Assembly: GCA_030295235.1 (NCBI GenBank)
Contig: AP026132.1
Location: forward strand, 496,001 to 560,000
DNA from: Fistulifera solaris
Lineage: Eukaryota
DNA: 64,000 nt
Direction: 5' to 3'
The translations under genes were made by a program, and so were the position numbers. Under the pieces are notes generated by a model. The model was not told the origin of the DNA and did not search any database. It saw only the letters and a list, made by a program, of their open reading frames with translations. How positions within the stretch are numbered: the stretch's first letter is position 1; every line of letters begins with the position of its first letter. Positions 1 to 44,494 of this stretch are shown here, in pieces.

Positions 1-3000
1 CGCATTCCACTACGACGGAGTTGATCTCAGCTGATTCTGGTTTTATCACCTTCATCAAGGCACCTGATTCTCGTACAAGTAACTTAACTGCTTCGTTGTG
101 TTCTAACATTTCTACCTCAACAGTGTCAGCAGCTGGAAGTAAGTTGCGGCGCCGACTCGTTGCAAGTGTCACGCATGAGCCCTCCTCTTCCTCGGGCGGT
201 ACTTGTGGCGTAAAATCAAACCAGTCTAAATCTGGGTCAAAGCAGACATCATCAAGAATGATAAGAACGTTCCTTTGCTCCAGAAACTCTACCATAGTCT
301 CTTTCACAAAAACCATGAATCCCTCTTCGCGTCTCCTTCTCTTTGCTTTGGATTCCCCGGGTGTGTGAAGCAATTCAGGGAACAGGGGCTCTTCCTCAGG
401 CTCTACTTCCAGTTGACCGATTAAATCCTGCAAACACTGTACATAGCGGGTGTAATTCAGTTCAGTTGGCCCAATGTAGACCCAGGCAATGCCATCATGA
501 AAAAAGCGGCGCACGTCGGGATGGTTCGCGACCATGGCAGCAATTGTAGTTTTGCCCACTCCTGCAACGCCTAAAGACTCCTCATCATCCGGGTCTTCGG
601 GAATGGAGGTCACTGAGACCAAAGTCGATGGGGAGAGACCAGCTGGAGCATCGGGGTTACGTATTTTGGGAAAACTATCTTTCATTCTCGTGTCAGTCAC
701 TACCTCGGGAGGAAGAATCCGTCGCAAGACGCTCGCCATAATCGGTATTCTTGTTAGGAATTCTCCATTGATCTTTTCTAGAACTTGCAATGCTGCTTCG
801 GGGGGAGGTACCAATTCATCATCATTCGGTTGAGCCGGAGTTTCGTCGTTTTCGTCGTCCTCTATAGCACAAATATCCATTAGAGCCTCAGTGTCGGGAC
901 ACCATTGGTCGCAACTAAGTAAAACCTCATAGCAGATCTGCCGAAACGTTGTCAAATCAGGGCTATGGAGAAGAGTGGTCGCTTCTTCGTCATGCCCCGT
1001 AGCTTCCCACGCAGACTGGATTTCTTGAGTAATTGTGTAAGCGGGAGTATCCACGTCGTCATATATACATGTAATTTCAAGTGTGTCTCGACCAAGAAGC
1101 TCTAAGAGGGTAAGATAGGAAGTGTTCGCACGTGCATTCCACTGTTGTTTCTCAGCAACACGATAGCAAAGGTCTCCCACCTGCTCCACGGTCAAGTTGA
1201 CGCCGTACAAGAAATCCTCCATCTCTTCGCTCATTTCGGTGTTTAACCCTTGTAATAAAATTTGCTCTAGTTGACCAAAAATATCGTCAAGCAGCCCAGT
1301 GTAGCCGAGCAACGTTTTCAATCCATCTATGGTCGCACGATCAGAACTCTTAGCGAATGTACAAAGCAACTCATATTCGTCGGAAAGCCGTAGCAAGATC
1401 CCCACAATTCTTTCAAAGCCTTGTAAAACTTTAGTAGATAGAGCCTCGCCATCTTCCTCCTCGTCCTCGTCGGATTTTTTGTGCTTCTTTAGCTTTATTC
1501 TCCGTGTTTCCCTTTTTCGCTTCAATGTGTTTATCAAGTTCGATCATTGCCTCATTGACTTTCGAGGCGAAATCTAGAAGAGCTTCACTTTTAACTTTTA
1601 TTCGACTCCGCTTTCTGTTCTTTTTCGGTCTATGTTCATCAGCAAGGTGCGCATCGTCTTCTGAAACTATCGTATTCCGAGGCAGCTCAATTAGCTTCTT
1701 AATTTGCTCTCGTGTGTAGCCAACTGCACCTGTTGGTCGTTCAACAGTACTCTTGACTAGTGCCTGCATACGACTTCTTCGACTTGAAGCTGAAGCATTG
1801 CTAACTTTCGAGTCGACTGATCTTTCGCCATCGGGAAGTTCTGACCCTTTTCCAGCGGCCAGCATCGTTGTTAGTGTAACTGGTCCGCTACTTTCCCCAA
1901 GTAAGTTTCCGGCTAGGTATGTTCGTTTATCGCTTTTGTTTGTACTCTGGCTGGCAATAGTATAGTTGTCTGTCGGTCCATCGTTTTTGTCCGAAAGTAT
2001 TTGTTGTTCAAGCCGCGTCGGTCGTGCGAAAGACCCTCTTACTTCGTCGGTTTTTGGCTTATCCTCTGAGTAAGTTCGATTATTTTGGCCGATTCCAACC
2101 CCAGATTTCGATGTAGATAATGATGAATCGGCGGCGAACGAGTCCACATTATCAGTGTTTTCACTAGAATGGACAGAGAAGCGCAGCGGATCTTCGCCGG
2201 GCATAAACTGCGACGCAACTCCTTGCCCGTAGCCGCTACTTTCGGATTGGGAGCTATTGTCGCTATCATTTTCTGAGTAGAATTGTTCGTTGTTCTCTTC
2301 CTCTTGAGAAAGGTGAGAAGCGTCTTCCGAAGGATTGGATTGGTCATTCTCATCAGAATAGTCCTCATCCTCGTGGTCGCTTTCATCGTGTTCATCTGAA
2401 TGATATGAGCTTTCCAGTTTACTAGAACCGTCATAATCGTCACCGTCAAAATCATCACGACCATTTTCTCCTTCTTCTTCCGAGTATGACCCGCCGTCGT
2501 CCCTAGAATGGTTGCTTCTGGATGATGACCGATCAGAATAATTTGATGCTTCGTCGACTTGGTTGGAGCTCCCATCATAATCATTATTTTCTTCGTCAAG
2601 ACGACTCGAGTCCATGGTCTGGGAGTTGGTAGTATACGAGCCTCCCTCGTCAATGCTTTGCGACGGATCATTCTCTTCATCGTCTGGATTCGAGTTTCCT
2701 TCGCCGGAATAATTTGAAGCGTCTTCCTCTTCCCCACGCTCGTCAGAATAATATGAACCGTCTTCATTTTCACCATGTTCGTCAGAATAATATGAGCCTT
2801 CCTCGTCTTCCCCACGCTCGTCGGAGTAATATGAGGCTTCTTCCTCTTCCCCACGCTCGTCGGAATACTGTGAAGCATCTTCCTCTTCCCCATGTGAGTG
2901 ATGACTATTGTCGTGTTGATCATTCAAAGAATTCGATCTAGGCCTTCCTTCTTCTGAATATTCTCTCGAATCACGCTCATTTGAATAATAGGAAGCGTCC

Positions 3001-3275
3001 TCGTCGGCATAAGACCCATCTTCGTTTTCGTCGTAAGAGCGATCACTATGCTCGTCTAAACTACGACTCTCCGATTCTCCTTCCTGTGACGCCTGTCCAT
3101 CATCATCGTTCGACTCGTAACTCCTTGAATGAGAGTCTCCATCATCCCTGCTGTTTCCCTCGTCGTAGCTGGCTTCGTCTGAATAGTAGCTCCCTTCCTC
3201 GGAATAGGGACCGGATTCACCGGATCCGTTTGAATCAGAATATTCATCTGGCTGATCCACGGAGCCACTACTCAT
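1..3275 (-). CDS. Large STAND NTPase (NB-ARC) protein: acidic low-complexity N-terminus, helical domain, NB-ARC; 3'-partial (runs off the window start)
   Basis: Manual translation of the minus strand 1..~1488 is stop-free and is missing from the ORF track. It contains Walker A GVAGVGKTT (~545-571), RNBS-A-like FFHDGIAWV, Walker B VLIILDDV (~245-268), sensor VTLATSRR and EAVKLLVRES. It joins ORF 1431..3275 through about two single-base frameshifts in A/G runs near 1410-1515 (inferred). An independent ATG at ~1453 cannot be excluded. Confidence 0.85.
2716..2894 (-). repeat. Coding tandem repeat, 39-bp unit x ~4.5 (peptide GEEEEASYYSDER)
   Basis: Units start at 2722, 2761, 2800, 2839 and 2878, e.g. 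tcttcctcttccccacgctcgtcagaataatatgaaccg. They encode GEEEDASQYSDER / GEEEEASYYSDER / GEDEEGSYYSDEH / GENEDGSYYSDER. Confidence 0.9.
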
Positions 3276-3915
3276 TGTATATTTCTCTGCGGGATTATAT
3301 TACACGTAAACTCGTTCATGACGACCCATTGACACCGAAACGAGGATGAAAATACGACGACTTGTTGTCATGCAAGTTTTCTTTTCACTTTTTGTTGCGT
3401 CTTGCTCGGTGCTCGGGTCCAGCTTGCGACTTGAAACGTGGTCATTCAATAATAGTAAAACGTGTTACTTAGAAGGTACGACATTGGCACAAGAGTGTTT
3501 TTGTTCTCGGCGGACATTTTTGTGCTTGTTTCCCCAAAATGTGAGTGCCACTCAGACGATCTGAATGTTGGCAAATAATAACGATAAGACAAAAGATGTG
3601 ACTCAAAGCTAGTTACCTAAGTTTTTACTAGTAAAATAGGCCCTTAGTCTACACAAGAAACGAAAAACATAATTAGACGATCTCTAGACGACTCCAGCAA
3701 AACTTTATTGGTCTTTAGGAATACAATTGATAGCGCGCAGGAAACAAACGCAGCATGTGATCCTTTGTCGACAAGTTTGTTTTTGGCAAACATAAAACTT
3801 ACGAAGAGTCGAACTGCAATGAAAAAATTGTGACTTTGAACGGGAATATCAAGAAACATTGCAAAGTAAGATTTTATCGGTCTCTGGTTAAAAGTGAATG
3901 CTAAGACTATATTGA

Positions 3916-4537
3916 TTAAAATTCGTCCTCGGCCAGATGCTCCGTCTCCTGAACACGTTTGACAAATTCCTCCTTCTCGACACATCCAACACATTCTACA
4001 CCTCGGTCGGCCAGAATTTGTTTTAGCTGCTTCACTCGGAGCTTTGAAATATCCTGCTTCTCCATATTATCTGTTTTTACGGGCAACTTGACGCTGCATA
4101 TTTCCGGATTGGATTTGTTGATTCGTTCACACACCTTGAGAGAAGGCATTCCCAGCGAGAAGGGTTGAGCAACATCACGTTTAATCGGATCAATGTAATA
4201 GCAAATCTTCTTTTCTCGGGAAGAAAGTTTGTTTCCTTTATTCGCGCAATACTTTCCAATCGCCGCCTCGATTTCCGGCTTTTTCTTACTGTCCTCTTTG
4301 CTCATTGACGCACGAACCTCATCCATGACTTTCACGCAGACTGAAAATGATGAACAGGGGTACAAGTTGTTGAGAGAACAAGGGAGAAACGTTTCATTTG
4401 AGACAAGAAATGACTTTACAGATCGTCGGAACAGTCCAAAGTCGCTCGTCTCGACGGAACGTACCTTCGCACTCCCCAGCGGATACCACACTGTTTGCGA
4501 GGCAAAATAAGGCAGCGAAAACGAAGAATACTTTCAT
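3916..4537 (-). CDS. MANF: MANF/ARMET/CDNF homolog (saposin-like + SAP-like domains; ER-lumen protein)
   Basis: Signal peptide MKVFFVFAALFCLANSVVSA. Removing intron 4341-4464 gives GECEVCVKVMDEV. Family motifs EKKICYYI, KVCERINKSNPEICSVK and KLRVKQLKQILADRGVECVGCVEKEEFVKRV are present; the protein ends AEDEF. Confidence 0.92.
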
Positions 4538-18946: not shown

Positions 18947-18971
18947 GGTCACTTTCGCTGTCAAAGCTAAA

Positions 18972-23412: not shown

Positions 23413-26400
23413 ATGCCGAAACAAGCTATTGTTGCAGGTAAGTATTAATCGCATGAAAATTTTGATGACTGAAAGCTACTCATTCATTGATATTGATAGC
23501 TCTGGAAGAGGTTTTCGGAGAATACGTTCTCAATCTTTCCAAAGATGACCTGAAAATCGCCGCATTGAGAGGTAAAATTGCGCTGGAAAATGTACAGCTC
23601 GACGGCGATATGATTGGTGGTCACATATTGGGAGCTTTTGGCCTGACAGGCTTTGGTGTCTTATCGTGCTCGGCGAAATCCGTCAAAATGCATGTGCCGT
23701 GGAAGAATCTAGAGAAAGAAACGACGCGGTTTGAAATTCGCGGCATACATTTGGTTTGCGTTCCCCTGATTTCTAGCACAGCCAACAATCTGTATGGGGC
23801 TGGCACGAGGCAGGATCCGATTTGTACGTTGAAAACTCGAGCGAAGCGACTGGCGCTCTCGCGACTCGAACGGAATTTCTGGAATGGTCTGATACCCGGT
23901 GAAGGCCCTCCTATGAAGAAAAATTAGTCGAGCGGTGAAAGAAGTCGAGAGAGAGCTACGAAAGAGTCGGAAGCGTCGAATGGTACGAGATAGAAAAATG
24001 GAAAGTGAGTTAGATCTCGAGGATGCCATGAATAGTTTAGTGGACGATCTGCAATCAACTGTCATTCATAACGAAGAAAGCGAAGAATTGCTTGAACAAG
24101 TTGATCAACTTCCGGAGCTACCACGTGATTGGAAAGTCAAACTACGTGAAAAGGTGTTGAGAAATATGGAAGCGTCAATTTTCGATACACACATACGATG
24201 CGAAGTTCCAGCTACTTCGGACAGCGGCGATAATGCTTTTGCTTGTGGGTTCACGCTAGATGCCTTCACTGTTCGAACAGCAAATGAAAAATGGCAAGCT
24301 GGAAGCCACGACAAAAGGAACGAGAACGATGGGTCGCCAATGTCGTCGGCACAGGGACACCTTGGACCAAATGAGTACGTCGTGAAAAACAACAAAATTG
24401 GGTACTTCAAAAATCTTTCTCTATACTGGGACGATCAACCTCCATTATTGCTAGCGGAAACGGAACTTCTGCAGGGAAATTCAAAGAAGCTATCAGCAGA
24501 AAAGATTGTCTCACGGGTAGCTGCTGCAATGGAGGTAATGTCGTCGCAGCAGGAGCCAGGCATCATTGTAAGGAATTCCCTATCCGTCACGCGTCAAGCG
24601 TAAGTAAACGCGCATTCCCGGTGTTTCCTATTGCATTTATCTAACAGTTTTTTAGCAAGACCGACCCCGTAAATATTCAAAGTGTACCCCACCAGTATAT
24701 TTGCCAGGGGTTTGACTCTGAGATCCGTTCCAGATGTAGCGACCGAACACAACCTGGTCCCATTTCTTGCTCTGCTGATGTTCTTTCTTGCGAGATAAAT
24801 ATTGATATTCTTCCGGAGCAGTACGCTCAATATCAGAAGTTGAAGACAGACCTGAAAGCGCAGCGACGGTTTGATACGATGTTCCGACAAAGGCCATCTA
24901 GAAACGCGGTGGAAGATCCGCGAGCCTGGTGGAAATACGCCTTTGCATGCGTGATTTCGCGCCCAACTTCTCGCCCTTGGGAAGACATTAAGATTATCTG
25001 CCGAAGCCGATCCAGGTATATGGAGCTAATTTCAAAGAAGAGTCTCAAACCAAAACGGAGTCACGGTTTTCACGCCGGGCTATCCGAGGCGGAAAGCGCT
25101 GAACTGTTGGAACTAGAAAGTCTTTTGCCGTTAGAGGCTCTCCTCGCATTTCATTTGCTTGCTTTAAGAAAGGTATATTGGCTTCAAAAGAAAGAATCTG
25201 ATCCGGGAATTTCGAAAGAGAAAAGTTTGTCCGCCAAATCTCTCAGTCCTTTTCGACTGCTCCGACAAAGAAATTCCAGGCGAGAGAAGAAAGGAGACAC
25301 CAACAAGACTGATTCGCCACTGAGAAGTAGTGATACCGGGGAAAGATTACAACAGTCTTTTAAGGGGTTCTCATTGTTCGATGCCATGACACTTCGGTTG
25401 GGTAAGAAAATGTGGTTCGTTGACTGGCGGCTTCATGATATGACAGTGAATATTGCAATTCACAATACGATTCAGCGCGAGCATTCCTTAAGATTGGTTA
25501 TTCGTACCTCTGGTCGTTCTAGAGTGTTTGGTTTGGGGAACAGAGATTTCTTTTTCGACATCAACCAATGTGACTTGAGCCACGGGGAAGATAAAACACT
25601 CTTCACGCGCTTTCATGGTGGGGTCGAAGAGAAGGAAGAAGATTTGGACGAATTTCTTGAATCGGAGGAGCGCCTTTCGACGTTGTCATTTTGTGACAAA
25701 AGTCAAGGTGCGGGTTTAGACTTGAACACATCGGCAGACTTTCTCGAACTTCCACCAGTGGGTACAGTTTGCCGTATCGCAGCTGGTCGTACGAAGGACT
25801 TGCTTAAAGTTAGCGTCTCAGCTCATCCGTTGACTCTACTTTGGACATCTTCTCTTTTGATTCCATATCGGAATTCATGGGGAGAAGCGACCCTGGTCTG
25901 AAGATCGAACTTACTGAGCATATAAAAAATGCCACACCGCTTGCCAGGAAAGCGCAGCTCGCGTTTCTATCACCAGCTTCTTCCGCTTTACACATCAATG
26001 TCGCAGCTCCAAATATTTGGATTCCAGTTGTATCGAATGGAAGAGAAGGTGCACTTTTGTTGACGCCGGAAACATGAAATTCTCTTCGCACAAAAGCGAA
26101 GGAAAGGTTGAATCGGACTGGGATATCAGGGCATCTGATTTGCAGGTCAATTTTGTTCGTGGTTATAGTGTATCTCGTTTAAATCACGAGTCCCTATACA
26201 TAGATACATTTTACAGAACGGAAACGTCTGTGATCAGACCGTTTTCAGTTGAGGCATACAGCAAGATATGGGATGAAGGTAATCAATTAGACGACTCGAT
26301 CGCGAAGTGCGGTGCAGCGCTCTCTGGACAAATCAGGTGCCAGAACGTTGTTGTCAGTCCAATTTGTCTTAGTCTGGTAGATGCAGAGGTACTTGCTCGA

Positions 26401-29400
26401 TCTTTTGGAAAGATATATACGAAAGGAATTGGTCATCTACAAAGTAGGGAAGGAGAAGACAATAAGGCAACTACTTTACATCTCCGCCGTGAAGACAGAA
26501 AGCTTGATCTTCTTATTCGCTCAGGCATACCACGGCGCTTCAACATGAAGATAGACAAGATCGAAATAGCCGTTGAAGGGCACTCCAAACGACGATCGCC
26601 TCTAGCAACGGATGATAAGACCATTCTATCAATGGATGATACTACCCTATATGACGTTGCTCCTCCTGTTAGAATATATTTGGTCGAAATCTTTCACATC
26701 TGCTTGGAGCGATCGATAAGGGGAGAAGTCGAGACGGCGAAGCTGTCCCTGTTCGATGCCTCGATCACCCGACTTCGCGAAGGCTCATTCTACACACCCC
26801 TTCGGCTTGACCGAGTACCTGTCGAGTCTGAGAATCGCATTTTGCAATATTCTCGTCAGCGTCTCGAAAATGTTAGCGATAATCATGGAGGGGATTCTCA
26901 ACTTTACGTACTCAGTGTATTATTCCTTCGGGACAAAGTGGCCAATCTGGATGAAATAGAGATTGAACTAAACTTTGTCACGGTGCGCGATACACCAACA
27001 ACCTTGAAGGATTGCGCAAAAGCTTTTAGAAAGATACTTGAATTGGTGCAATTGGCAACGAAAGAAATGGAACGAAAGGTTCACGAAGCTGGTCGCAAAG
27101 CTCGTCGAAACAGATTCGGTAAGTCGTTTGCGTTAATCTTTACATAGTGGGTCTTGGTCTTCCTGACGAATCTTCCAGCACATGGCCCGCAGTCACGCCC
27201 AACTAGTCCAGGATTGACGGGAAGGCCCTTTTCTCCTTCCATGTCTACTTCAGAGGATAAATCGACGATGTTGACACCTCCGGGAACCCCAGATTCCAGA
27301 CTAGCTTCAGATTCGAGTATCTTACTAAAAATCACCCTCAATGAAAATACGATCTTGGCCGGAAGACCAACTTTACTTTACGCGGAAAGATCGCAGCTAA
27401 TGGGAGAGCGAGCGCAGTACGCTGTTATACAGATTTTGTCGAACGCACGAATCATGTTTCAAAGCATAGAGAATCCAGATGGGACAGGCACTAAAACTCT
27501 ACACGTCAGCGTGGAGGATGTTTCTTCGCTGGTTAACACCGAATTTGAACGAGTAGCCAGATCTGAAGCGCCACCGATGATCGGACCATTCGGTTCGGAG
27601 TTTCGAATTGTTTACGCGACGGAGAACCTCGGGTGTGTGGTATCTCAAGATGTTTCGCTGGATTGCGAAACCATAAAATGCCGCTTGACTCCAAACGATC
27701 TCTCAATCATCATTTCCATATTACGGCGGATGTATGAAAGATTCAGAGACTTTAGCGCGGGATCGAATTTAGCCGATGAATTGCGCTCTACTCCATCGCG
27801 AAATACTATTCACAATTTTGTACGGTATCAGAAGAAAGGGACTGGGGTTGCAACTACTGTGCGGGCTGAAATTTATGCCTTTTCTTTCGTTCTACTAAGA
27901 GCATTTAAGTCTCATGCTGGCGCTCCTGAGTTTTTGGATTTCAAAATTCAGCAAATCAAGCTCAAGCTGGAAGGTTGCCTTTCGGCGCTCTATGGCGACT
28001 GTTCAGCTCTTTTGTCCATCAATTCATTTAACTCTGATGCCGAAGACTGGGAATACACCGTTGAGCCCTTTTCTTTCGTTATTTCTTTGGATCAAATGCC
28101 TAACGAGATGGTAAGTGCTTGTTCGTGTGTGGTTTAAGTGGCGCATTGCCTTTCTCATTTTCTTTATATAAGTCTATGAATGCGCGTTGCAGCGGTCGAC
28201 TGAATCTTAATTTAACCGGCGTTCTTCTGAGAGATTTAGCTCAAATGAAGCTCGATATTTCTAAAGACGACGACACTGATAGTTTCCATGATAACATAAG
28301 CCGATCGGCACTTTCGACCGTCGGTTTGAGACGGGCGACGGAAGCCAAAACAATCAAAATGACCAACGTGACAGGCCTTGACTTAAATGTGCAGCATAAC
28401 TTGGCCCCGGCAGGTCGTCATATGATTTCGGTTGCAGGTAATACCGAAGTCGTTTTGGGCCATGTAGCGGAGGAACAAGCACATGATCAATACGCGATGT
28501 CAGTAGGACTTACCTCCTCATCTACAGCACTCATTGGCGCGCGTCAGCCACTTGACGACATACCAATATCTTCGTCATCCCTTGGCGACTTTCGCCTCTA
28601 CGTTTTGTATCCTGCATCCTCTGAACTAGGAAAGAAGAAAGAAACTGAATTATCGAGCCATAACGTTGAGCCAGTAGTTGAGTCGTGCATCCGCAACGAG
28701 AGGCTAAAACCAAGCATCAGCGATGTGTTTGGGCTTTCCAAGGGAAAAGATCTACTTTCGTCAGAAGTTTGGCCCTTGGACGAAGATAATACCGAAAGCT
28801 TTCTTAGCGAGGTCTCAGGAAAAGAAATTGGGAGAAACATTCTCTACGGTCAGAAGACCCGACGAAGTGACCCGGGAAATTGGATAAAACCATATTTAAA
28901 GAGCGATCCCCCCTGAATGGAGTGATATGACGGGCAGTCAAGTTGAAACAAGGAATGTATGTAAGCAGCGTTGTGCATTTAAAACTTTTCTTCATTTCGA
29001 TGCTAAAATTCTTTTCCGTTCGTCACCTGTGGTTAACAGCAATTTAAGTTGCCTGACAAACGTTGGTTTTGGGTGGACGACTGGTCTGTCAATTTGAATG
29101 GTAAATTGGGGCTTCACACCGACGCTGACGGCTGGGAATACCATGCAGAGTTTGAGACATTTACAAAAAGCAAACGTTCTTACCAACGAGGCGACGTATG
29201 CAGACGTCAACGTTGGTCGAGGACTAGAATGTTGCATCCCCGTAAAGGGGACGAGTTGTTTCGTCCAATAAAACTGATATGGGAAACGTCACGCGATGAA
29301 AATGGTAATTACTTTGTATCACTGCGGAGCAACCTTCGAGTCTTGAACAAGACTGGAGCACCCTTGTCAGCATTACTATATTGCCCATCGTGGGATAATG

Positions 29401-32400
29401 ACGAACTGGCAGGAACCATGCAACCGGGTGAACACCTGGACGTGCCTGTGATTTTGACCTCTGCTATTTATATGAGAATTGCTACGCCTCCAAGTACGCA
29501 GCAGGCAACAATGAAGGAGTGTATGTCAACGGACCGCTTCCTGATAGTACCGAAATCTCAGGAATCCTCAAACTTCATACGTACTTCTATGGATTTAAGA
29601 GACATATCAGGGACGACTCTTCATTATCTTGTTGAAATCAAAAGTAAAGGTGGGACTGTCGATATAATTATTGAATCTGTATTCCGGGTTATGAATCTCC
29701 TTCCTTGCCAGCTAGAATGCCAGATTGGACATTCCCGGGTAGCGCAAGGGGTACGTTCCATTGCACAAACAGAAGTGTTATCGATCAGCACCGGGAAAGA
29801 AGGGTTCTGTACTGCGGTTAACCCTTGGCGTACACCACACATATCTTTACGAGTACCGGGGTACAGATGGAGTTCTTGGCATCGAATTGTGAATAGAAAT
29901 GCCAAATCGGATACGTGGCGTCCGTCAACGAAAGAGGAAAACTCGCATTTTACATTTCACGGAGACTCTGACTTTGCTAATGAGCTTACAACGGTCGTAA
30001 CTTTTGAGAGGATAGGGAGATTTGGTGATCCACTAACATTACTTTTGAGTGTAGAGTGTGGTCACTGCCCTGTCCTTCGTGTATACTCCCAATACTGGAT
30101 CGTAGATAAAACCGGTTTCGGATGCCGTTTTTCTGAGGGATTTCTCGACATCTTAGCTTCAACTCCCGATAATCAAACATCGCGCCGCTCTCATCTACTC
30201 CCCGAAGAGAAAAGCAATCCTGAAATGAGGAAGGATTTGACGATGGCCGGCAACCAGTGGTCGATTGGCATGAACGGAATGACCTTATACTTCTCGAAAA
30301 GGGAAAAGTTGACAATGTGCATCGAGGTTCGTAACGGGTATACTAGATCTGATAGCGAGAGAGTTCGCACAAAATGGATATCCCCTCTTGATATCTCGAA
30401 CGTTTTACCAAAAACAGTCTTCTCCGTGGAAGAAAGCAACGGTGAAAGGCTTTTTGAGCTTGCATTTAATGTTACTGTGTGCCCAGGTGTCTTCTGCCGA
30501 ACAAAAATCATCACGCTGCTTCCGCGATTTCAAATCATTAATTTGCTTCATCGTGAACTGGTCATTGGTCAAGATGGAAGTCTTGACAGTCCCACAGTCA
30601 TATCATCTCAGTCTACTTCAACCTTCCATTGGGAAAATGGGTCCCTTCCTTTGAAGGCACGACTCGGAGCACCAACGGGCGATGAACTGCGACGGAAAAA
30701 TTACGATAACTGCTGGAGCAACGGAGTTTTTCAGATCGATAGAGTAGGGATCACATCGTTGCGACTACCCGTCAGTGGCAACGTCGTGGTTGGCCCCATG
30801 GTAGTACAGGCTGAAGTGAGACTAGCAACGAAAGACCAACACTCGGCCGTTGTTGTGGTATTTTGGTCAGCAAACGACAAGTCCAATCCTCTTTACATAT
30901 TGCGAAATCGAACAAGGTACACTATACTCTGCCGCCAGCCGATCAGCACGCACCCTTCAACCAAAGAGGACGATAAAGGAATTCATACAAGGGTGATAGC
31001 TGAGAGTTGTACACCAAGGGCATCCTTCGACACTGATCTTCCGTGTGGGGCTGAACTGGCTCCTGCTATGAGTTCTTTTTTCGGTGTTGAACAAGTACAT
31101 GAGTTCGTTTGGACGATCGAAAGCAACCAGGAGACTTGTTTTGGTTTCGACAACCCAGACAAACCTCGCGTTCTTGAGTGGTGCTGCGTGACGAGCAAGA
31201 AGATTTCTTTTGGTAATGTCAAAAATCCCTCGTACATTGAAATAGATGAAATGGGATCTTTTAGTGTCTTTCGGCTACCAGGAAGAAAACAAATCCAATG
31301 TACTATCAAAGCGGAGCACTCGACGAAAGTGGTGGAATTTGTGGAGGACAATACATATTGCTTGTCACCATCATTTCGTGCCCAATTTGATAGTGATGTG
31401 CTTGGATCTCTGGCGGAGGCCGGAGTTGGGGCTGGTGTAGAACCTGTCAGCATGATGAAGGAAGATAAGGAACATGAAGAAGAAATTGCTTTCGGTGTAA
31501 AGATATGCATCCCCTCGCTGTTCGTAAGCGTTATTGATAATGCAGACCCTCACGTCAATGGACGCGAAATCTTGGTCGCACGAGCAGAAAAAATCTATTT
31601 CGGCTTTTCTCAAACAAGAGAGGGATATCACGAGTTGGAATTGACAATAGGTACTTTCCAAGCGGACAACCATGTCCGGAATTCTATTCACCCAATTTTA
31701 GTGAGTACAATTGAGATTTTTTTCGACCATATTTTCCACGAACTTCGTCTCTCACATTCCTTTGAAGGTCTTTTGTCCCCAAAGTGATCCAAAGGATCCC
31801 CTTGTGCACATGTCGGCAGTACGCCGTATCCAGGATTTGCGCAATACTTTCGTGTTCCAGTATGCTGCTATTCGGCTTCTCGAGATCGAGATTTACTTGG
31901 ATCGAAGGTGCGTGAGAGTAGGTGACATTTATGTTTGCATGACAGGCGCTAACAGATCAATCTCCCCAAATCCCAGAACTGCCGAAACAATTGCTCGTTT
32001 CATCGAGCCCCTTACCACGCCTGCAGAGAATCGCGTAGAAGAGATTGACTGGGTCGCCAAGCTTACGCAATCGATTGAAGCATCCTTCACAAATCTAGAC
32101 CATCGTGTCCCCAAAGAAATCGAGACAATGATACATATGGCGAATTCTGGTCGAATTTATTTTGAAAGGCTGCATCTACACCCAGTGCGGATTGGGCTTA
32201 CCTTCACACAAGAGTGGATGGACTGGACACCCGGCTCGGAAAGCATGATGCTATTCCAATTTCTTCGCGGAATGGTGCGTGTCTGAACAAATTTTCTTCA
32301 TAACTTGGGATTCTTTCTTACACTCTATCTCGTTTTTCATGATAGACATCGATATCCAATGCCCCTCTTGTTTTCACGTCCTTTGTCGTTGGGCATGTCT

Positions 32401-34161
32401 TCGAAGCCCCACAGACCTTGATGCGCGTCATCGCCACACACTATTCTTCGCAACTAACAAAGCAAATTTTTGGGATTTTGGGAAGTCTAGCTATTCTGGG
32501 CGCTCCAGCGGATTTCATTTCAAACGTGGGGAGTGGTGTGCGGGACTTTTTTACGAGCCAATACAAGGCGCTGTTCACGGCCCCCGCCAGTTCATAGAAG
32601 GGCTTGAGGCAGGGACGCAGAGCCTCGCTCGAGGAGTGTTTGTCGGAGTGGTTCGAGGAGTGTCGAATGTCACAGAAGTTGTAAATACTAATCTCGCTGG
32701 CTTGACTGCCGACGATGAATTCATGGACGAGAGACGCGCGTACCAACGAATCATGACGGATACGATCAGTAGAGGACTAGAACACCGTACTTTCTCGGAT
32801 TCTCTTTATCTTGCTGGGGCCAGTGTGGCCCGAAGTGTCAGATCGGGCGCATTGGGCATTGTTGAACAGCCTGGGGTTTATGCTTCTAAACAGGGGCCCG
32901 TTGGTTTTGCTAAAGGTGTTGGAAAGGCCTTAATTGGCGCCGTGGTCAAACCCGTGGTTGGCATTGGTGATGCAGCTGTCTTGGTAATGAATCATCTCTC
33001 GGATGCAACGAGCAAGAAGAGGATAATTCCGAAATTACCAATCCGGATGAGGAGAGCTTTACCTTGTCGCTCTATTGAGAAGATAAATTGCGTGCGGTTG
33101 GAACCGTTTGACGAGCGAGCCGCTAAAGCACAGAGAATTGTGACAGGAGGCGACACTTTGGATGATGTCTACATCGGACACATCGACATCCCGAATCATC
33201 TGATCATCGCTAGTGAGCAATGTCTCTGGGCTATTGATAGGAGATCTCGAGAACCATGGTGCGTTGATTGGGAAGAAATAAGCCATTTCGGAACATCGGA
33301 TGGGGGGATTCGTATTGTTATATTTAGTCAGAATGGCGTGAAAGCTTACATGTTTCAGACGGAGAGTATTGCTCAATCGACACAGCTTCATAATCTCCTG
33401 TCCATGCAAAGTCGAAAGATGGTAAGTCTCGCAATAATTATCCCATGAACGGTGTGTTGTGAGTTGTACTCATGGCGCATTTTGATTACTTGGAAAGGCA
33501 AATTGCTCGGAACTTGAGGGCGCAATCTTGAGTGCTGACCCTGATAGCCTGTCACGGCGAACCATTCCCGGCATCAAAGCCAGACAAGTCGACCACGTGT
33601 TCGGGAGTATCAACAACTCTAAACGAAGACTCGGAAGCAATGTAAAAGATGAAGTTGACCTAGTGGAGCAATGTCGTGCGCGTGTTCGTGCTATCGGAAG
33701 TGAGTCGTCAAGCTACTTTAGAAGTCTTGATGACGAGGCATGGACGCTTGTCTCCAATTGGGGACAAGTTTTTTCTGGTCTGAGTTCCCGCAGGTGCATC
33801 GTAGCCAGCATCATCAATGGCACTGGCGGGCCCCTGCAAATCAAATCTGCTAAGCTACTGGAAGGCGGTAGTCCTTGCTATTCCATCCCCACAAAAGAGT
33901 ATAACGCACAACAGGGAATTTTGTACTCGGGCGGATGTATTCTTTTTTTTTGCATGGGGCGTAGCACCGAACTTGCTCCAAGCTGGAAACGTCTTCATGC
34001 ATATCGAAACAAATGCATTTGAATGCGAACTGGCGGATCACAAAGACCGTGCTACGTACGGGAAAGCGATGCCCGGTTACAAAGTAGGATTCCTAGAAAA
34101 AAGCTACGATGACAGTGGCTGGTGGGCAAAGTATTGGATACTTGCTCGCTCTGTAAAATAA
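23413..34161 (+). CDS. VPS13: VPS13-family bridge-like lipid transfer protein (~3300 aa, multi-exon)
   Basis: Exon 1 MPKQAIVA, intron 23438-23499, then chorein-N LEEVFGEYVLNLSKDDLKIAALRGKIALENVQL; PRAWWKYA; WEYTVEPF; DysF-like insert; VAB repeats (YSQYWIVDKTG, RTKIITLLPRFQIIN, YILRNRT); VPS13_C IYFERLHLHPV, ILGSLAILGAP; ATG2_C-like GFAKGVGKALIGAVVKPV; PH-like end. Several homopolymer frameshifts. Confidence 0.93.
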
Positions 34162-36208: not shown

Positions 36209-37294
36209 CTACGCTGACAAGGGAACTTTTCGTCGGGGACCCGGTGTTCTTCTCCACATCAAGTCCTCAATAACATTTCCTTGATTGTCGCGCACATCGA
36301 ATCGGAGAGGAAGAAAGTAGTCGGAAAGACCGACGGGAGTATTGATTTGGATCCCCTGCAAAACGTACGGTGAGACCCACCGTAATATAATCATTCGACA
36401 CAAAAGCAACAACATAAAACTCTTACTCCGAGCATTGCAATGCGCGTATTCGCATCTACATCGGCGCGCGTCACAATTTGCAACATCATATCGTCCATGG
36501 GCTGAAACAGGGCGTACGGCAGTTCGACCATGGGATCGAGGGCTTGTTCGATTTGTGCCGCATACGGCAACAAAGTGGACGCCACGTACGCTTGTTGGGC
36601 ATCCAAGGCGGTCGCGATGGAACGCACCGGAGCGGCGTCTCCCCGGTACACGGCGCTCGCGTACTGCGCCGCGGCAATGGCGGAACCGCAACACGTCCCC
36701 AATTGCCGTTGCCCGCGGCGTTGCAGTTTACCGATTTGACCATCGGCACTGATCCCGACGTGAGGACCGTACACCACCAAACACGAATCGGGCATGCGCG
36801 AGGTCATGGCCATGAATCCGGAAAGACCCGCAAACGGAAATCCCGCCAAGCCTCCCAACGTAAAGTGCGATCCGAAATAGTTCTGCAGAGATTCTTCGAG
36901 CGGACGATTGACTTCATCGGAACACAAGGAAGTTGCCACGAGTGTATCGGGTCCGTATCCGTACGGTTGTAAGGCGGCGTAGACTTTCTGGACGAGTTCG
37001 GCGTTGGTGACGGCATTTTTATAACAGTTGGCGACTTGTGCAACGCAGGTCTGTTGGATGCATGTGAGAGAAAAGAAAGGCACGTCTGCGGAACAACATG
37101 CCGACTTACTTTGTAGGGATAGTTGTCGGCTGCTTGGGAGGGAAGAGGGAGGAGTGCTCCGCTGACCATGGGTCCAAAGAATTCACGACGAGTGGCCTGC
37201 CGTGGAGTGAAATTTGTTGTATCTTTTTTGATAGGAAAAAAGCTGCCGTCGCGTGAAGCGATACTAAAGTACATAACAGTGTTCTCCTGGGCAT
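36209..37294 (-). CDS. Theta-type carbonic anhydrase / LCIB family protein, plastid-targeted
   Basis: ATSLCSDEVNR, FTLGGLAGFPFAG, YGPHVGI, RRGQ...CCGSA, DAQQ and LG|GIQINTP...DYFLP. Introns 37051-37109 and 36356-36426; one base missing in the T6 run at ~37240. Confidence 0.92.
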
Positions 37295-37696: not shown

Positions 37697-39222
37697 ATGC
37701 GGAAAATTCGCGTCATAACAACGATCATTCTGGGCTTGTCGTTGAGCCAGGCCCTCTTGTTCAAATCGAAAACTCGCGTTCCTTCCTTGCAGCATGCGTG
37801 GGCCGACAGTAGTTATGAACGCGACATTCCGACCGAAACCATGGCGGCCGTACCGGAACCCGCGGTCGTGCCTTCGCAACCCAAGATTGTGGTGTTGGGT
37901 GCGACGGGGAAAATTGGTCGTCTTGTTGTGAGTCAACTCTTGGAAACGAATGGGGAAGCGACCATTGTCGCCGTCGTCCGCGATTACGACAAGGCGTGTC
38001 GAGTGTTATACGATGATTTGATTACCGTGAACAAGAAAAAGCGTCCCGTTTTACAAATTGTCGAGGCCAATTTAGTGCCACCGGAGGAATTGCCGGGGTA
38101 TTCGAACATTGACGAGGACGAGGAAGAGGAATGGAGGAAACGTGCAACGTCCGCGGCGGCGTTTTATGGAACTTCCATTCAAGACTACAACAATCAACAC
38201 GCATATCCGGCCGATGAAGTACTGGAAGATGCCATTCGGGGATGTACAGCCATTATCAGTTGCGTCGGATCGGTCCGACCCACGAATTTGTGGACCGACT
38301 TTTGCTCCTCTGGAGGGTGTGGCGGAAGGATGTCAGTGCGTGGTGTTCCGATGCGCGGCATCCGTACTACGTGCATTATCGGAGTACCCGGAGAGCCTTG
38401 GCACTCGCGGAAAAAGAACAATTGCGACGACAGTCTCTGCAAACACTCGAGGAGGACGATACCTTGAAACGAAAAAGTACGGACGTACCGTCGCGTATTC
38501 GCTTTGTGCGCATTTCGGACCTGTGTCTGCAGCAACAACCCTGGCACTTTGTTCCGCTGCTGACGAATATTATGCACTCGATGGTGTTTCGCTATCAAGA
38601 CATGACGGAACAAGTGCTGCAATCGAGCAGTTTGGTTGATACCATTGTACTTCGACCGGGGGATCTTTCCGATGACGAGAGAAATGTCAACACGACGGCC
38701 CTTCAAGTCGATCCATCCGGAAAACTGCCGTCACCATCCCGAGTGGGTCGGGAGGATGTGGCTTCCTTGGCCGTTTCTTCGGCCTTGTTTCGTATTCCCA
38801 ACGCCACACAGGCGTCTCATTACACGCTGGCCGTGCGGTGGGTGGGAGAAGATTTACATCCGTATCCCGCACAAGGAACGATGAAGGATGGTTTCGCGAA
38901 TGCACACGCTTGTCTCCGTCATGCATTTCAAAAGAAAATAGCATCTACCGCCCGACGGCGGAACATCAAACCGTATGCACTCTTTACGACCATTCCGGTC
39001 TACACGATGTTGTTTCTACTATTGAGATCACTGACGCATAATCTTCTACCTCTCGTTCTCTCTCATTTACCGGGAAAAACAATTTTGTTGCCGTTCATTT
39101 CTCGCATCGGCAAACTAATGGCGCTCGTGTGCGGCGTCCTGGCGGGGCAATTGGGTGCGCTGCAGCAGATTTCTTTTTCGCGATTTTTCGCCAAGAGTGC
39201 TCCGAAATTCATTTCCTTTTGA
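37697..39222 (+). CDS. Atypical short-chain dehydrogenase / NAD(P)-binding protein (NmrA/TIC62-like), probably plastid-targeted
   Basis: Signal peptide; KIVVLGATGKIGRLVV Rossmann motif; AIISCVG; IVLRPGDL; VGREDVA; hydrophobic C-terminus; frameshift ~38300. Confidence 0.8.
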
Positions 39223-39330
39223 AACAAACTACTGTAACTATTAATTCATTCATAAGCAACTAAAGCGTTCTGTATCCATAATATTGTCTGTCGACACAAT
39301 TCTTTGAAGCAGATTTCTACAAAATCTTAA

Positions 39331-39754: not shown

Positions 39755-40156
39755 GTTTCCGTCGCTTTCTTTCGAGATTATCTAATTAGCAAGACAACGA
39801 TAGTCGCTTTGGTTGTGAATGAAGGGCAAGCTATGAGGGCATTTTCGTGTGATGTTGCTCCGCAAAAATAGGACGCCTTTCTACTTTTTGAACAAGGGAA
39901 ATTCCGCATTCCTTCTTATCAGTATAAATCTTTTATGTAGGCGCAAGATTGTATCAGTCACGGATAAGGACTTTTACCTATAACCTTAACGAAAACAAGA
40001 AAATCAGGTTTGCAGTTTGCAGTTTGCGCAGAGACACCACGACGAGATGCGAAACAGATTTTTTGTTTGATATCATAACAATAACATCCTGTCATGGTCA
40101 TCATCGTCAAAGCGTCCGAATAAAGAGTTGGGCGGATTCGCTATACTATTGCAAGG

Positions 40157-43100
40157 ATGTCAGAGATGTCCTCCGTCGCCGATCTCGCCGAGGAAACAAA
40201 ACTACCCGAAAATCTGATCGAATTCGATAAACTCGTCGAGGATGCTTATCAGCAAGAAATTGCCTTATTTACAATACGCGGTCAAAGTATCCCCACGGCT
40301 TTATCCGTTCATGATCTTACGGAGAATACGAAACGACGAGAAGAAACGCGTCTCGATGTCATTGATGCATGGCGAAGACTCTTGCAGCAGATGAAACACC
40401 GCGCGGTTTTCATCGAGCACGTGACCTCCCTCGAGCGTGCGTTTCTTGATATCGAAGATATTCACAAAACAGAATATCGTCGCCTAATCACACTGGTCGA
40501 CTTATTGACGCAGACGGTGGAACATTCGGATCGGGATGTTTCTTGTCGCTTTGTCACTCTGCTCGAAGTCTTATTATCGTATTCCGACGACTGGGTCCTT
40601 TCGAACGACATTGCGCCATTCTGGGAACGTCTTCAACACGAAGTGCCAGCATCGAAGATAGCCCCGGCAAGTTTTCGGAGACGGGCCTATCGTGTTCTGG
40701 TATCACTGTCGTGGGTTCCGAGTAGCAGCGGACTCTTGGACGCCTGTTCGTTCGATTTCAAAAAGTTGACCACCAATTATGCGGACGCCCCGACTCTGTT
40801 ACAACGCGAAGTATTTTGGAAAATTCGGGGAGGTCAACCACGACCACGACATGATTCGGTGAATCAGATACTGGATCGTCTTAAAGATGAAGCAGGCGTT
40901 TGTATCTCGATTTGGTCGACCAAAGATGGGATGGGAAGACGACCCTCGCCGCACAAGTGGCGAGCAACCCGTCCATTTTGCGAGTGTTCACCGTGGTTTG
41001 GTTGAATTTGGACAAGGAGGAGATGAGCTACGCCAAATATATCGAGTATTTGTCTGAATTAAGTCGACAGATGTCCGTCGATCTCCGATGGCCAGACGCT
41101 GTGGACCGTATCGAAGAACGGGGACTCCGGCAAGTCAGAGAGCAATCGCTGATGAGCGAAGCTCGCAAAATTATGGCAGAATATGTCGAGCGCGAAGAAT
41201 TGAGTGTCTTGCTAATACTTGATGATCTAATCGACTCAAGATGGATCAAGTGGTTTCAATTCAGTGACAGTCAGTCCATCATACTCACTACTTTGAAAAA
41301 AGAGATCGATGGGGTTGATTGGCCAGTTCAGCTCGGTGTTATGGATGAAGGGGAAGCAATCGAGCTTTTCCTTACTGAATCCAGTCTCCCTGTAGACCAT
41401 ATTTTAGGAACTACAGCTGAATTGAAAGAAATTGTAACAAGGTGCGAATTCAATCCTCTGACCGTGCGATCTGTGGCAAGATGGTTTCATTTGAAACAGG
41501 TTACGGCTGGGCACCAAAAAGCGATCGAAGAGATTTTGTTTGACATGGAGAGCTTGGCTCAATCAGAACGAAGGGAGACGAGCGAAGACGAACACGAAGA
41601 GATGGACCCAAACATGTTTGTTTTTGACGTCTTAAGTCTCATGATGGGTCCTACGACAAGCAACACAAACATAACATCGGTGGTTTTCGTCCTGTGCTTC
41701 GCAGCGCTCGAGGTTGTCTTTCCTCACCGTGTTCCTCTGGACGCTGTGTTACTGCTCTGGGAACAGGCTCTTGCGACTGAGTCTCTTGCAAGAGATGAGC
41801 TTCAAGTCACCGGCGTCTCACAAGCCGGCATACCGAAACTTGCCTGGTTCATCGCAGAAGGGTTGATACACATGGGTGTAATTCATGTTTTTGACGACGA
41901 GCAAGGAAACCCTTGGGTCCAAATTCACCACAAATTGTACGGAGAATTCGCTGCTTTGATGGCTAGAGAGATGTTTGTAAAGGCTTCGTTTGAAGTGACC
42001 GCCTCTAAATGGAATGAGGCATTTGTCACAACTTTTGTTACGCGGAGAATTCAGGTAAACATGAAAGAAGCCACATCGTGTAGCATGGAGTACGCCCTAC
42101 GACGACTTCCTGAACATATGTTGAAAGGAAACATGCTCACCACAGCGGAGAAGATCCTTACCGACGAACAATTCTTTAAAGCTCGCATCGATACTCTAGG
42201 ATGGGACAAGGCGATGGATATCCAGCTACTAAATTGTGTTGCCTTACAAGAGCGATTCGGAGAGGAGCTCGAGGGAGGAGTGACGGTAGTATTTAGACGG
42301 ACAGTCGATATGGTGAAGGAACTGGCAGGGAAAAGTTTTGATAGTGTCGAACATGCCAATCAAGCGGCTGCGCATATTTACAACAGGATTGGCTTTTTAC
42401 TGACTGGGTTGAAATTCTATGGAATTGCTATTGGTTACCTTGAGGAAGTTCAGCGTATGAACGTCCCTGACGCGATTGTGGCAACATCTCTCTACGGGGA
42501 AGGTATTTGTCATTTGAATCTCAATCAAACAGATATCGGACTGCAGAAAGCGAAAAACTGCCACTCAATCATGGAACTAGGATCTGACCTTCATGTTCTC
42601 TACACGAATATGCTACAGCTGGTTTCGTCGGCGCTGGTGGCTGCGTGCCACTACACCGAAGCCGCCCAGTTTTACCATGTCATCTGCGACAAGCTTCGAG
42701 CGGATCCGGAAAAATGGAAGCTGGAACTAAGCTCGATTTTGCTTGGACAAGCACAACTTTTTTCAGTACTGGGCGATTTTGAGAACGCCGAAACGTTTTT
42801 TTCTTGAGTGTTTGCAAATGAAAGAGAGGGCGAACGAGAAAAGTCTCGATTTGGTATCCGCGTATTCATACCTAGGGGATGTTTTTATAGAACTTGACCG
42901 GGCTGACGACGCTAAGGAGCGATATGAAGCTGCTATCGACATTCTAAGCTGTTTAAACGCCGATGACATTGACGGTGAAATTATTTTACTTTTGAAGGGA
43001 AAGCTTCATTTTCTCCGAGGTGACTACTACTCCAGCTCCGAGGCTTTTACGGTTTCCGCCGATTTGATCAATAAGTCCCCAACTTTGCTGCTCGACAAAT

Positions 43101-44494
43101 CTGCATATGATCTTCGGTTCATGGCAAGAACGTTTTTCCTAAGAGGGGAATCTGAAAAAGCTGTCGAGTTGCTCAAAGCTAGCCTTGAACTTTCCGATGA
43201 GCGCCCGATATCACTGGAACGTGCAGCCGGACTGACTGATCTTGCACATTCTCTCATAGATATGGGGAATTTGAATGAAGGCATCACGTTCTTGGAAAAT
43301 GCTCTTGAAATTCAAATTACACATTTTGGAGAGAGTCTTTTTGTTGTTGATAGATTGAAGGCGATTGGAGGTGTTCATTGCGCTCTCAAAGCATACGATG
43401 AGGCAATCGCCGTGTATGACAAAATCCGCGAAATACTGCAACGAGTCCATAGCGAAGATACGGACAGGATGGCCGATATCATATTTGCGATAGGCGACGT
43501 TCTCGAGCAAAAGGGCGAAGTGGATGAGGCGATACAAGCCTTCACACAGTTCATCAAAGTCGTCGAAAGCACTAAATCCTCGGATCATCCCGAAATCGCG
43601 AGATCGTACCAACGGATGGGAGAAATTGAGCTGAAACGACATTCAGTTGATGAAGCCGAGGGTCACTTCACGAAAGCGTACGCTATCCGCAAAGTTCATA
43701 ATCAAGATTCGTTGATAGCGGAAACTTCTCATTTCCTCGGTGTTTTGGCAAGAATGCGCCGCGATCAGAATCTTGCTCTCGAGTATTTGACGAGCGCACT
43801 GGAAGTTCGAAAAGGTTACGACAAAGCCGGAGAAACATGTCTAACATTATTCGAAATTGGTAATGTCTATCGAATGCAGTGGGAGTACGACAGCGCTATC
43901 AGCGTCTACGACAAAGGTCTGGAGATGATCGACAAAAGCTCCGAAATGGCAGGGAGAATTGAGAATGCAAAGGGACACGTAATGGTCGGCAAAGGCGATT
44001 TGGAGGACAGTCTTAGCATGTTTAGCAAGTTCCGCGAGACCAGACTGGAGCGATTCGGTAGAGATCACATTTTGACTGGAAACACTTCGAGGAGTCTCGG
44101 CCTTGTTCATTTCTTGTTGAATCACGTCGATGAGGCCCTGGTTCATTTGAACGAATTCGTCCGTGTATGCGAATTGCAAGAAGACGAGGATACAAGTGAA
44201 ACCATAGACTACGCAATGGCTGTTTTTCTTCTCGGAGAACTCCACCATCACAAAGGCAAGACCGATCAAGCGGAAGAAGTGTGGACCGTAAGTAAAGAGG
44301 TTTGCGAGGATAATGGATTTGACGCAGTTTATCCAGAGTTCTTTGCCATGGTGAGCCGCCGTCTCGAACCAGGCGCCGAGGCAAAACCAAAAAGTACGGG
44401 GCTATTCTCCCGACTCACCGGGGAGGCGCAAATTCTCACTGATCCCGACGAACGACGGGTGTTGCAACAGATCGCCTTCATGGACGACGAATAA
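40157..44494 (+). CDS. STAND NTPase: helical N-terminal domain + NB-ARC + APAF-1-like helical domain + TPR array
   Basis: Walker A DGMG(K)TTLAAQV, restored by one A at ~40935; FTVVWLNL; Walker B LLILDDL; IILTT; CEFNPLTV (GLPL-equivalent); IHH (MHD-equivalent); EYALRRLPEHM...LTDEQFFKARI; many TPRs at 42330-44300 (e.g. DHPEIARSYQRMG). Frameshift in the T-run at ~42800. Confidence 0.88.

Follow-up and report, generated by a model that had tools for sequence, protein, structure and literature searches.

Two paralogous NB-ARC–TPR proteins of the diatom Fistulifera solaris share a candidate new N-terminal domain

Known NB-ARC systems and the Fistulifera solaris genes

NB-ARC proteins of the STAND class (signal transduction ATPases that have numerous domains), which include Apaf-1, CED-4, and the plant R proteins (PF00931), are built from an N-terminal domain, a nucleotide-binding oligomerization domain (NOD), and repeats. 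Two genes of the diatom Fistulifera solaris that encode proteins of this tripartite build are the subject of this work; they are separated by 37 kb in a 64,000-nucleotide stretch of assembly GCA_030295235.1 (contig AP026132.1, positions 496,001 to 560,000 of the forward strand), hereafter the window, with gene 1 at its left end on the reverse strand and gene 2 on the forward strand. Both proteins have an NB-ARC domain above the Pfam cutoff, a P-loop, a Walker B motif, and a His at the place of the MHD motif, but carry tetratricopeptide repeats (TPRs) rather than WD40 or leucine-rich repeats (LRRs) and have no CARD, TIR, or coiled-coil (CC) domain by Pfam; a sequence search at E ≤1e-3 reaches no NB-ARC protein of solved structure. 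We find that the regions upstream of the two P-loops share a predicted helical domain, here termed the N-domain, and we lean toward the view that the two genes represent F. solaris in two ancient paralogous, diatom-specific STAND ATPase clades that act as conserved cellular switches. Clade A (≈1450 residues) includes gene 2, and clade B (≈1800–2500 residues, with an acidic, probably disordered N-terminal extension) includes gene 1.

Several described systems resemble these proteins in part. Nucleotide-binding, leucine-rich repeat receptors (NLRs) in the strict sense join a NOD to LRRs, whereas the C-terminal part of the diatom proteins matches TPR families only, with no LRR; the Apaf-1 family joins a CARD to WD40 repeats, and neither is found by Pfam in either gene, nor in 14 N-domains scanned at E ≤10. 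Nephrocystin-3 likewise places kinesin-light-chain-type TPRs behind a P-loop NTPase, but the diatom NTPase is NB-ARC and not NPHP3_N (PF24883; 15.6 bits against a cutoff of 24.8), the gene 2 TPRs (44.2 bits) stay below the TPR_NPHP3 (PF24885) cutoff of 100, and the N-domain is unrelated; six clade-B-like proteins and the unplaced protein P0130 do pass that cutoff (112–141.6 bits). MalT-type proteins and AfsR are transcription factors with DNA-binding output domains. These bacterial and archaeal STANDs would share with the diatom proteins a TPR sensor and an autoinhibited NOD switch, described in the accessible part of PMC6468293 as a resting monomer that multimerizes upon inducer binding. The NCBIfam AfsR model matches the TPR part only (47 and 79.6 bits; cutoff, 1430); throughout the PADLOC and NCBIfam scans, matches are confined to the TPR part, all those from NCBIfam lying far below cutoff.

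Nearer in lineage, an NB-ARC–TPR family of the stramenopile Ectocarpus has been put forward as candidate defence genes, chosen for signs of rapid evolution and with exon shuffling in the title (PMC3341825, as far as its available portion goes). The diatom proteins share with that family the stramenopile origin and the pairing of NB-ARC with TPRs and differ in that their clades are conserved, TPRs included; no Ectocarpus protein surfaced in the exhaustive N-domain profile search described below, and no direct test of those proteins for the domain was made. Fungal NLRs with NB-ARC and TPRs have diverse architectures and N-terminal effector domains that are often unannotated (10.1101/2022.03.16.484565, in the portion available). 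On that partial description they resemble the diatom proteins in a three-part layout with TPRs and in lineage-specific N-terminal modules, whereas in diatoms a single N-domain is tied to a single architecture across two conserved clades.

The N-domain, its carriers, and its predicted fold

A direct comparison of the regions 5' of the P-loops with BLASTP aligned 74 residues (28% identity, E 3e-6), including the pair TTFRQICYEVLLSCDQWCP and ASFRRRAYRVLVSLSWVP, and the NTPase parts aligned over 188 residues (27% identity, E 5e-17). Profile–profile comparison of the N-regions (HHalign), with profiles built from 53 relatives of the gene 2 type and 34 of the gene 1 type, gave a probability of 97.2% and an E of 2.9e-11 over 159 columns, against 0.065 for a reversed target and 0.12–0.93 for 10 column-shuffled targets. 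By these sequence comparisons, the homology of the N-regions is real and reaches well past the NB-ARC motifs. An earlier sequence-only reading of the window had called the two genes paralogous NB-ARC STAND proteins, which their Pfam scores bear out (52.6 bits, E 5.2e-14, for gene 1, at residues 323–492 of its open reading frame (ORF), and 34.6 bits, E 1.6e-8, for gene 2, at residues 12–213 of ORF 40900–42807; cutoff, 23.5), and had held that their N-terminal regions align. It had also paired six stretches by eye, and all six recur in the BLASTP alignments or in A2, a 14-sequence alignment drawn from both clades: all four NTPase pairs in the NTPase alignment, and SYLTLLELL and RFVTLLEVL in one column block of A2. 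The shared helical regions that it drew at ≈880–1410 and ≈40340–40720 overlap the stretches measured here (Table 1).

To define the range of the domain, we searched with each N-region separately and with an A2 profile. A word-indexed search with the gene 2 N-region returned 58 proteins, 52 of them longer than 1300 residues (1373–1724, median 1466), and the gene 1 N-region returned 37, of which 34 exceed 1700 residues (1806–2543, median 2237); precomputed Pfam lists of these relatives hold NB-ARC, AAA_16, and TPR-type families only. The A2 hidden Markov model (HMM), run with HMMER against 1,835,955,588 representative sequences, matched 64 proteins at E ≤1e-3 (59 at ≤1e-10 and 44 at ≤1e-30). Among the 22 newly found, 17 have NB-ARC at E ≤1e-5 (15 of these 17 together with TPRs), one has AAA_16 only, and the remaining four, all short, have no Pfam match. 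Domain carriers below 800 residues number 26, 11 of which extend into the P-loop, with one ending in the strand just ahead of it and 14 ending within the N-domain or at most ≈70 residues past its end. Each HMM match of sufficient length for a judgement thus joins the N-domain to NB-ARC (with or without TPRs), and the N-domain was found neither in another architecture nor as a convincing stand-alone protein.

The eight carriers with an organism name are diatoms in every case. They come from F. solaris (two homeologs), Mayamaea pseudoterrestris, Epithemia clementina (one per clade), 'Psemu1', which we take to be Pseudo-nitzschia multiseries, a metagenome-assembled genome of the Bacillariaceae, and Attheya sp. 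CCMP212. Attheya is a non-pennate diatom and its match is weaker (E 6.6e-13, partial); judged from the sequence, non-pennate diatoms may have more divergent forms of the N-domain that the profile barely reaches. The weakest N-domain matches are P0126 (Attheya sp. CCMP212), P0130, and P0133, which cover the profile core only (positions ≈70–181, with 70–220 in P0130 and 47–128 in P0133); where a P-loop was found in such core-only matches, it lies 75–125 residues downstream.

We then placed the N-domain together with the first 330 residues past the P-loop in a FastTree phylogeny of 100 of the 134 proteins, leaving out 34 with no P-loop within 150 residues, with fewer than 330 residues after it, or with a match starting beyond profile position 60. 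The tree resolves a 60-row clade (53 gene-2-type proteins and seven new ones) and a 40-row clade (34 gene-1-type and six new), both with SH-like support of 100 and with a stem of 1.44 leading to the gene 1 clade. Both E. clementina and F. solaris contribute one member, named or encoded in the window, to each clade. A search with the gene 2 NOD returned 50 proteins, all 50 belonging to clade A or being fragments of its members, with F. solaris represented by its two homeologs only. Among its named carriers, the N-domain is restricted to diatoms, and it falls into two ancient paralogous clades of uniform length. The proposal of a lineage-restricted family is thereby sustained by 64 HMM matches whose named members are all diatoms; that of a pathogen-sensing NLR-like family sits poorly with a domain found in only two deep clades of uniform length and with a NOD search that returned its own clade only.

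AlphaFold2 models built from 51-row alignments, without the NOD, are confident and all-helical, both for the whole N-domain of gene 2 (250 residues; mean pLDDT 83.7, pTM 0.77) and for the 146-residue core common to both clades (pLDDT 87.3). The model of the whole domain has helices at residues 15–38, 62–79, 83–98, 101–119, 126–137, 149–155, 167–180, 187–193, 210–217, and 228–243. Helices 1–4 (residues 15–119) are predicted to form an up-down bundle, and the last helix, ahead of the strand and P-loop, would by its position be the first helix of the NOD. The portion found also in clade B begins at helix 3 and contains the most conserved stretch, which in clade A reads ...CRFVTLLEV.LSY..W.PS....FW.....FRRKAYRVLVSLSWVPSSKGLL.ACSF.... 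Across both clades, 14 columns of A2 are invariant (F, L, E, W, F, R, Y, V, S, W, P, L, C, and R; core pattern F..LE..W..FR...Y.V..S..W.P....L...C), and none is His, Asp, or Lys, which argues against an enzymatic role as far as sequence can tell. Both window genes are rows of A2, and in a local hmmsearch, its profile scores 268 bits on the gene 2 product P0001 and 177 bits on the gene 1 product P0059.

In clade A, the N-domain profile ends exactly 26 residues ahead of the P-loop in 45 of 58 proteins and 32 residues ahead in five more, the remainder being seven incomplete profile matches and one protein in which no P-loop was found; in clade B, this gap is 61–64 residues in 34 of 37. This fixed spacing shows that the N-domain is rigidly joined to the NOD.

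Searches for a known family were negative at each level. The N-regions of both genes match no Pfam family at E ≤0.1, and the 14 N-domains, scanned at E ≤10, give 14 families with one member each and no consistent lead. The N-domain profile reaches E 0.15 at best against all PDB sequences. Foldseek finds nothing in the PDB at E ≤1e-3 (best 1.1 for the whole domain and 2.4 for the core), and its best match among the BFVD viral models has an E of 0.37. The ESM Atlas gives sub-threshold HEAT/ARM-like leads for gene 2 (best score 0.88) and no usable match for gene 1. VIA-align against 48,161 chains ranks two designed helical bundles first for the whole domain (Z 9.1 and 8.2) and a plant invertase inhibitor for the core (Z 6.3, with none at 8 or above), values at the stated background for helical models, with residues past ≈190 (whole) and ≈120 (core) barely covered; no death fold is among its matches for the whole or core domain. 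The sequence-only reading had placed an unrecognised helical domain at the NLR effector position, and it stands as such, with no Pfam, PDB-sequence, or clear PDB-fold match. The N-domain is a candidate new Pfam family; our literature search, which covered the sources in part, met no description of it or of either clade. A predicted complex of the two N-domains scored 0.00; family alignments were not used and the partner fold is uncertain, so that this value counts neither way.

Conservation, expressed as mean pairwise identity (39/42 rows in clade B and 46/50 in clade A), is distributed differently along the two proteins. In clade B, it rises from 18% in the N-extension and 54% in the N-domain to 65% in the NOD, 62% in the middle part, and 77% in the TPR/C-terminal part, so that the TPR sensor is the best conserved part and the N-extension the least; the latter also varies widely in length, with the P-loop at residue ≈445 to ≈1927. 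Clade A has no N-extension and shows 46% in the N-domain, 51% in the NOD, 41% in the middle part, and 40% in the TPR/C-terminal part, whose sequence would thus appear no more variable than the rest (40% against 51% in the NOD). Diversifying pathogen receptors show the reverse of this pattern, in which the sensor either leads in conservation or varies no more than other parts, and neither the pathogen-receptor picture of the sequence-only reading nor a diversified NLR-like repertoire agrees with these values, given two uniform-length clades and no excess variation of the clade B sensor. Conservation in fact comes close to the single-copy, housekeeping type that the same reading had named as telling against itself, in a domain that matches no known one.

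Both clades retain Walker A (GKT[TS]) and Walker B (hhhhDD; clade A consensus, LLvLDD; clade B consensus, VLIiLDDV). By eye assignment of positions, clade B has TtRrR and MH, whereas clade A shows HH together with an ivTT that lacks the Arg, leaving a conserved His at the MHD place in both; the names sensor-1 Arg (RNBS-B 'TTR') and MHD are presumptive. In F. solaris gene 2, the first Walker A Gly is a Thr. The C-termini carry opposite charges. Clade A ends in a hydrophobic-hydrophobic-acidic-acidic tail (F-[IVM]-D-D) at the very C-terminus of 40 of the 52 proteins longer than 1300 residues, and clade B in a basic, Lys/Gly-rich tail with G.[QRK]L within the final 12 residues in 12 of 34 proteins; both have a G-[LMV]-F-[SGN]-[RK]-[LIM] motif 20–40 residues before the end. 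EEVD-type peptides bind TPR grooves, and the acidic tail of clade A resembles them.

A conserved switch and its alternatives

The order common to both clades is a helical N-domain of ≈220 residues, an NB-ARC domain, and a long TPR array. From known STAND proteins, with those that carry TPR sensors as the template, we infer a switch cycle with the TPRs as sensor and the N-domain as output. At rest, the protein would be kept closed by the TPR array and an ADP-bound NB-ARC. A conserved cellular ligand or partner, rather than a variable pathogen molecule, which seems less likely, would bind the TPRs, and nucleotide exchange would then open the NOD and allow it to oligomerize. With their distance to the P-loop fixed, the N-domains would form a defined array as the output surface. 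No other protein type carries the N-domain, and a homotypic contact with a separate adaptor, of the CARD, PYD, or TIR kind, therefore falls away; the surface would most likely recruit a partner that lacks the domain. Contact with the other clade, direct action, and service as a NOD accessory remain as further options beside this preferred one.

Several points weigh against the conserved-switch reading or its details. FastTree flagged long branches, and the root is a midpoint root only; the word-indexed NOD search can miss distant NB-ARC genes, and the figure of one gene per clade and genome comes from tree shape, uniform lengths, and a handful of named matches rather than from genome counts. 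The ATPase cycle of clade A may, to judge from its sequence, be atypical because the sensor-1 Arg is absent and the first Walker A Gly is replaced. Fixed spacing and high conservation fit a regulatory accessory of the NOD equally well, and a role in death or immunity is compatible with strong conservation. Apaf-1 itself is a conserved single-copy gene.

The accessory possibility is the best of the alternatives, and we regard it as rather unlikely: the N-domain would be a clade-specific lid or oligomer interface of the NOD, with output through partners of the TPRs or the terminal tails. The FISNA region, which precedes NACHT in some animal NLRs, holds a comparable position. Such a role agrees with a linker to the P-loop that is exact and clade-specific in length, with an HHalign match that runs continuously into the helix just ahead of the P-loop strand, with a domain never seen apart from NB-ARC, and with the location of its most conserved stretch in the NOD-proximal half. 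However, nine helices over ≈220 residues, predicted to fold confidently on their own (pTM 0.77 without the NOD), would be large for a lid, and clade B tolerates ≈37 extra residues between the domain and the P-loop.

We consider it improbable that the proteins are immune or cell-death receptors whose N-domain is itself the executioner, for example, by inserting into membranes as CC, HeLo, or MLKL bundles do. The tripartite, NLR-like architecture, the position of the N-domain where effectors lie, and the exclusion of a separate homotypic adaptor, which leaves direct action as one option, speak for it. So does a 'TPR protein with an NB-ARC domain' of Thalassiosira pseudonana (Thaps3_22882), whether or not it falls into our clades, that the available part of PMC5599023, which cites Nedelcu 2009 for cell-death domains in diatom genomes, discusses among cell-death-related proteins. 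For a T. pseudonana NB-ARC/TPR protein, PMC5599023 gives 0.78-fold levels when N is limiting and 1.21-fold levels when P is limiting. The sequence-only reading had suggested a comparison with four-helix bundles, and this holds to the extent that helices 1–4 are modelled as an up-down bundle placed N-terminally on a switch protein and that MLKL (4btf, rank 34, Z 5.5 over 87 aligned residues) and the Rx CC domain (4m70, rank 38, Z 5.4 over 80) are among the VIA-align matches of the whole domain. These values are at noise level and rank under the designed bundles, however; both families are missing from the 50 best matches of the core model, sequence gives no match either, with 14 of 14 scanned members free of HeLo, CC, or any other effector family in Pfam at E ≤10, and the conserved half of the N-domain, which both clades share, lies outside the bundle. 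The ZAR1-type mechanism uses a free N-terminal helix. The clade B domain is not N-terminal, and the clade has no such free helix because 350–1900 probably disordered residues precede it; nor was expansion or sensor diversification found. More broadly, a system of immunity or cell death whose effector is novel is possible but unsupported, its receptor-repertoire form being weakened by the conservation pattern.

A bolder proposal, which we rate as highly improbable, is that the two clades are an obligate, diatom-wide pair, either sensor and helper or a hetero-oligomer, that meets through the N-domains and serves as the upstream, apoptosome-equivalent platform of regulated cell death in diatoms, acting on metacaspases or another executor and tuned by the acidic arm of clade B and by the opposite tails (acidic F-[IV]-D-D in clade A and basic in clade B).

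Gene integrity, neighbourhood, and meaning for diatom biology

The features of both genes are collected in Table 1. The sequence-only reading had the limits of both genes right within the window, except that gene 1 continues beyond its left end: the product is the public protein P0059 (2156 residues), of which the window covers approximately the first 1090, the left end cutting the gene. P0059 is identical to the acidic ORF of gene 1 at 600 of 600 residues. This extension is rich in Ser (18%) and Asp plus Glu (25.5%), with SYYSDE-like repeats (units ...SYYSDE(R/H)GE...), the 614-residue acidic ORF has no Pfam match, and from its composition it is probably a disordered, phosphorylatable arm. 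The product of gene 2 is the public F. solaris protein P0001 (FisN_34Hh014, 1442 residues), 100% identical to the first ORF of the gene; no intron joints were seen in public run contigs, which may be DNA. TPR_12 matches seven stretches of ORF 42743–44494 (E 1.9e-49), beside further TPR families, and among PDB sequences, these repeats find consensus or kinesin-light-chain-like TPRs only. Contigs of run X1 (organism A) over window positions 40100–44550 hold a second form of gene 2 at 90–95% likeness, which fits the second homeolog, P0002; in the environmental metagenome run X2, 81% of the sampled gene 2 words are present.

Table 1. Coordinates of gene 1 and gene 2 features in the window
Feature	Coordinates	Strand	Basis or remark
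Gene 1, part within the window	2-3275	-	clade B, NB-ARC STAND protein
Gene 1 ORFs	2..1537 + 1431..3275	-	overlapping pair, standard code
Gene 1 low-complexity N-terminal extension (residues 1-600)	1476..3275	-	ORF, composition
Gene 1 frame shift, A6 run	1475..1480	-	one A above open-frame need
Gene 1 N-terminal helical domain (P0059 residues 608-844)	743..1453	-	HMM envelope
Gene 1 stretch aligned to clade A	about 713-1315	-	HHalign
Gene 1 NB-ARC domain	2..571	-	Pfam; truncated by left window end
Gene 1 P-loop GVAGVGKTT	545-571	-	read in translation
Gene 2 ORFs	40157..41005, 40900..42807, 42743..44494	+	three overlapping, standard code
Gene 2 whole coding region	40166..44494	+	clade A, NB-ARC STAND protein
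Gene 2 N-terminal helical domain (P0001 residues 13-230)	40202..40855	+	HMM envelope
Gene 2 core common to clade B	about 40406-40885	+	HHalign
Gene 2 NB-ARC domain	40928..41538	+	Pfam
Gene 2 P-loop G-M-G-K-T-T	40928-40944	+	straddles missing G
Gene 2 TPR array (sensor-type repeats)	42875..44314	+	Pfam TPR_12
Gene 2 C-terminal tail AFMDDE-COOH	44474..44491	+	translation

Three frame breaks interrupt the two genes, each inside a homopolymer. In gene 2, one G is missing from the run at 40933–40935, within the P-loop, and one T is surplus in the run at 42796–42802. P0001 is open through both (...STKDGMGKTTLA..., at the P-loop, and ...ETFFLECLQ...), and public run contigs add the G behind 40932 in three of three covering runs and delete one base at 42796 in two of two. 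P0059 passes uninterrupted across the A-run of gene 1 (...KAKEAQK|SDEDEEEDGEA), which, by extension from the two confirmed cases in gene 2, we take to be an assembly error. The breaks are homopolymer errors of the window and both genes are intact because public proteins cross all three and run contigs mend the two in gene 2. Similarity by chance or composition, or decay of the loci into pseudogenes, to which three breaks in two genes might have pointed, is barely credible beside an HHalign E of 2.9e-11 against 0.065–0.93 in 11 controls, the correction of both gene 2 breaks by every covering run contig, public proteins that bridge all three, and full-length orthologues that number in dozens.

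The interval between the genes holds an AAA ATPase fragment, a POP1-like RNase P/MRP subunit, a VPS13-like giant gene, a GOST-type membrane protein, an LCIB-type beta-carbonic anhydrase, and an NAD(P)-binding protein, with no sign of a defence island or operon-like system between gene 1 and gene 2; the immune-system picture drawn earlier thus meets 37 kb filled by ordinary housekeeping genes. The carbonic anhydrase (ORF 36391–37083, reverse strand; PF18599, E 6e-57) is of the LCIB/C type, which is part of algal CO2-concentrating mechanisms. The ORF immediately downstream of gene 2 (44600–45307, reverse strand) appears by eye to encode tandem S1-type RNA-binding domains (..GAFIDIG...GLLHISQLS.. 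and ..GAFVRIN...GLVHISALS..). Further genes of the window look interrupted in a similar manner: the VPS13-like gene (23935–33448) falls into at least four ORFs that match Pfam VPS13, with unassigned ORFs between them, and the NAD(P)-binding protein (37697–39222) into two overlapping ORFs. With homopolymer errors in the window, gene length is therefore under-reported by ORF-based calls.

Diatoms perform a large share of ocean photosynthesis, and the molecular machinery of the death processes that close their blooms is little understood. In phytoplankton programmed cell death, metacaspases are the only known molecular components according to the accessible part of PMC8455989. The conservation seen here corrects an over-reading: NB-ARC plus repeats is by itself no proof of an immune receptor, and in clade B of these proteins the sensor is the most conserved part. 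Two diatom-only STAND switches, as two genes with clear domain boundaries and clear switch residues, are testable entry points, and they hold as such whether the proteins control stress signalling, death, or defence.

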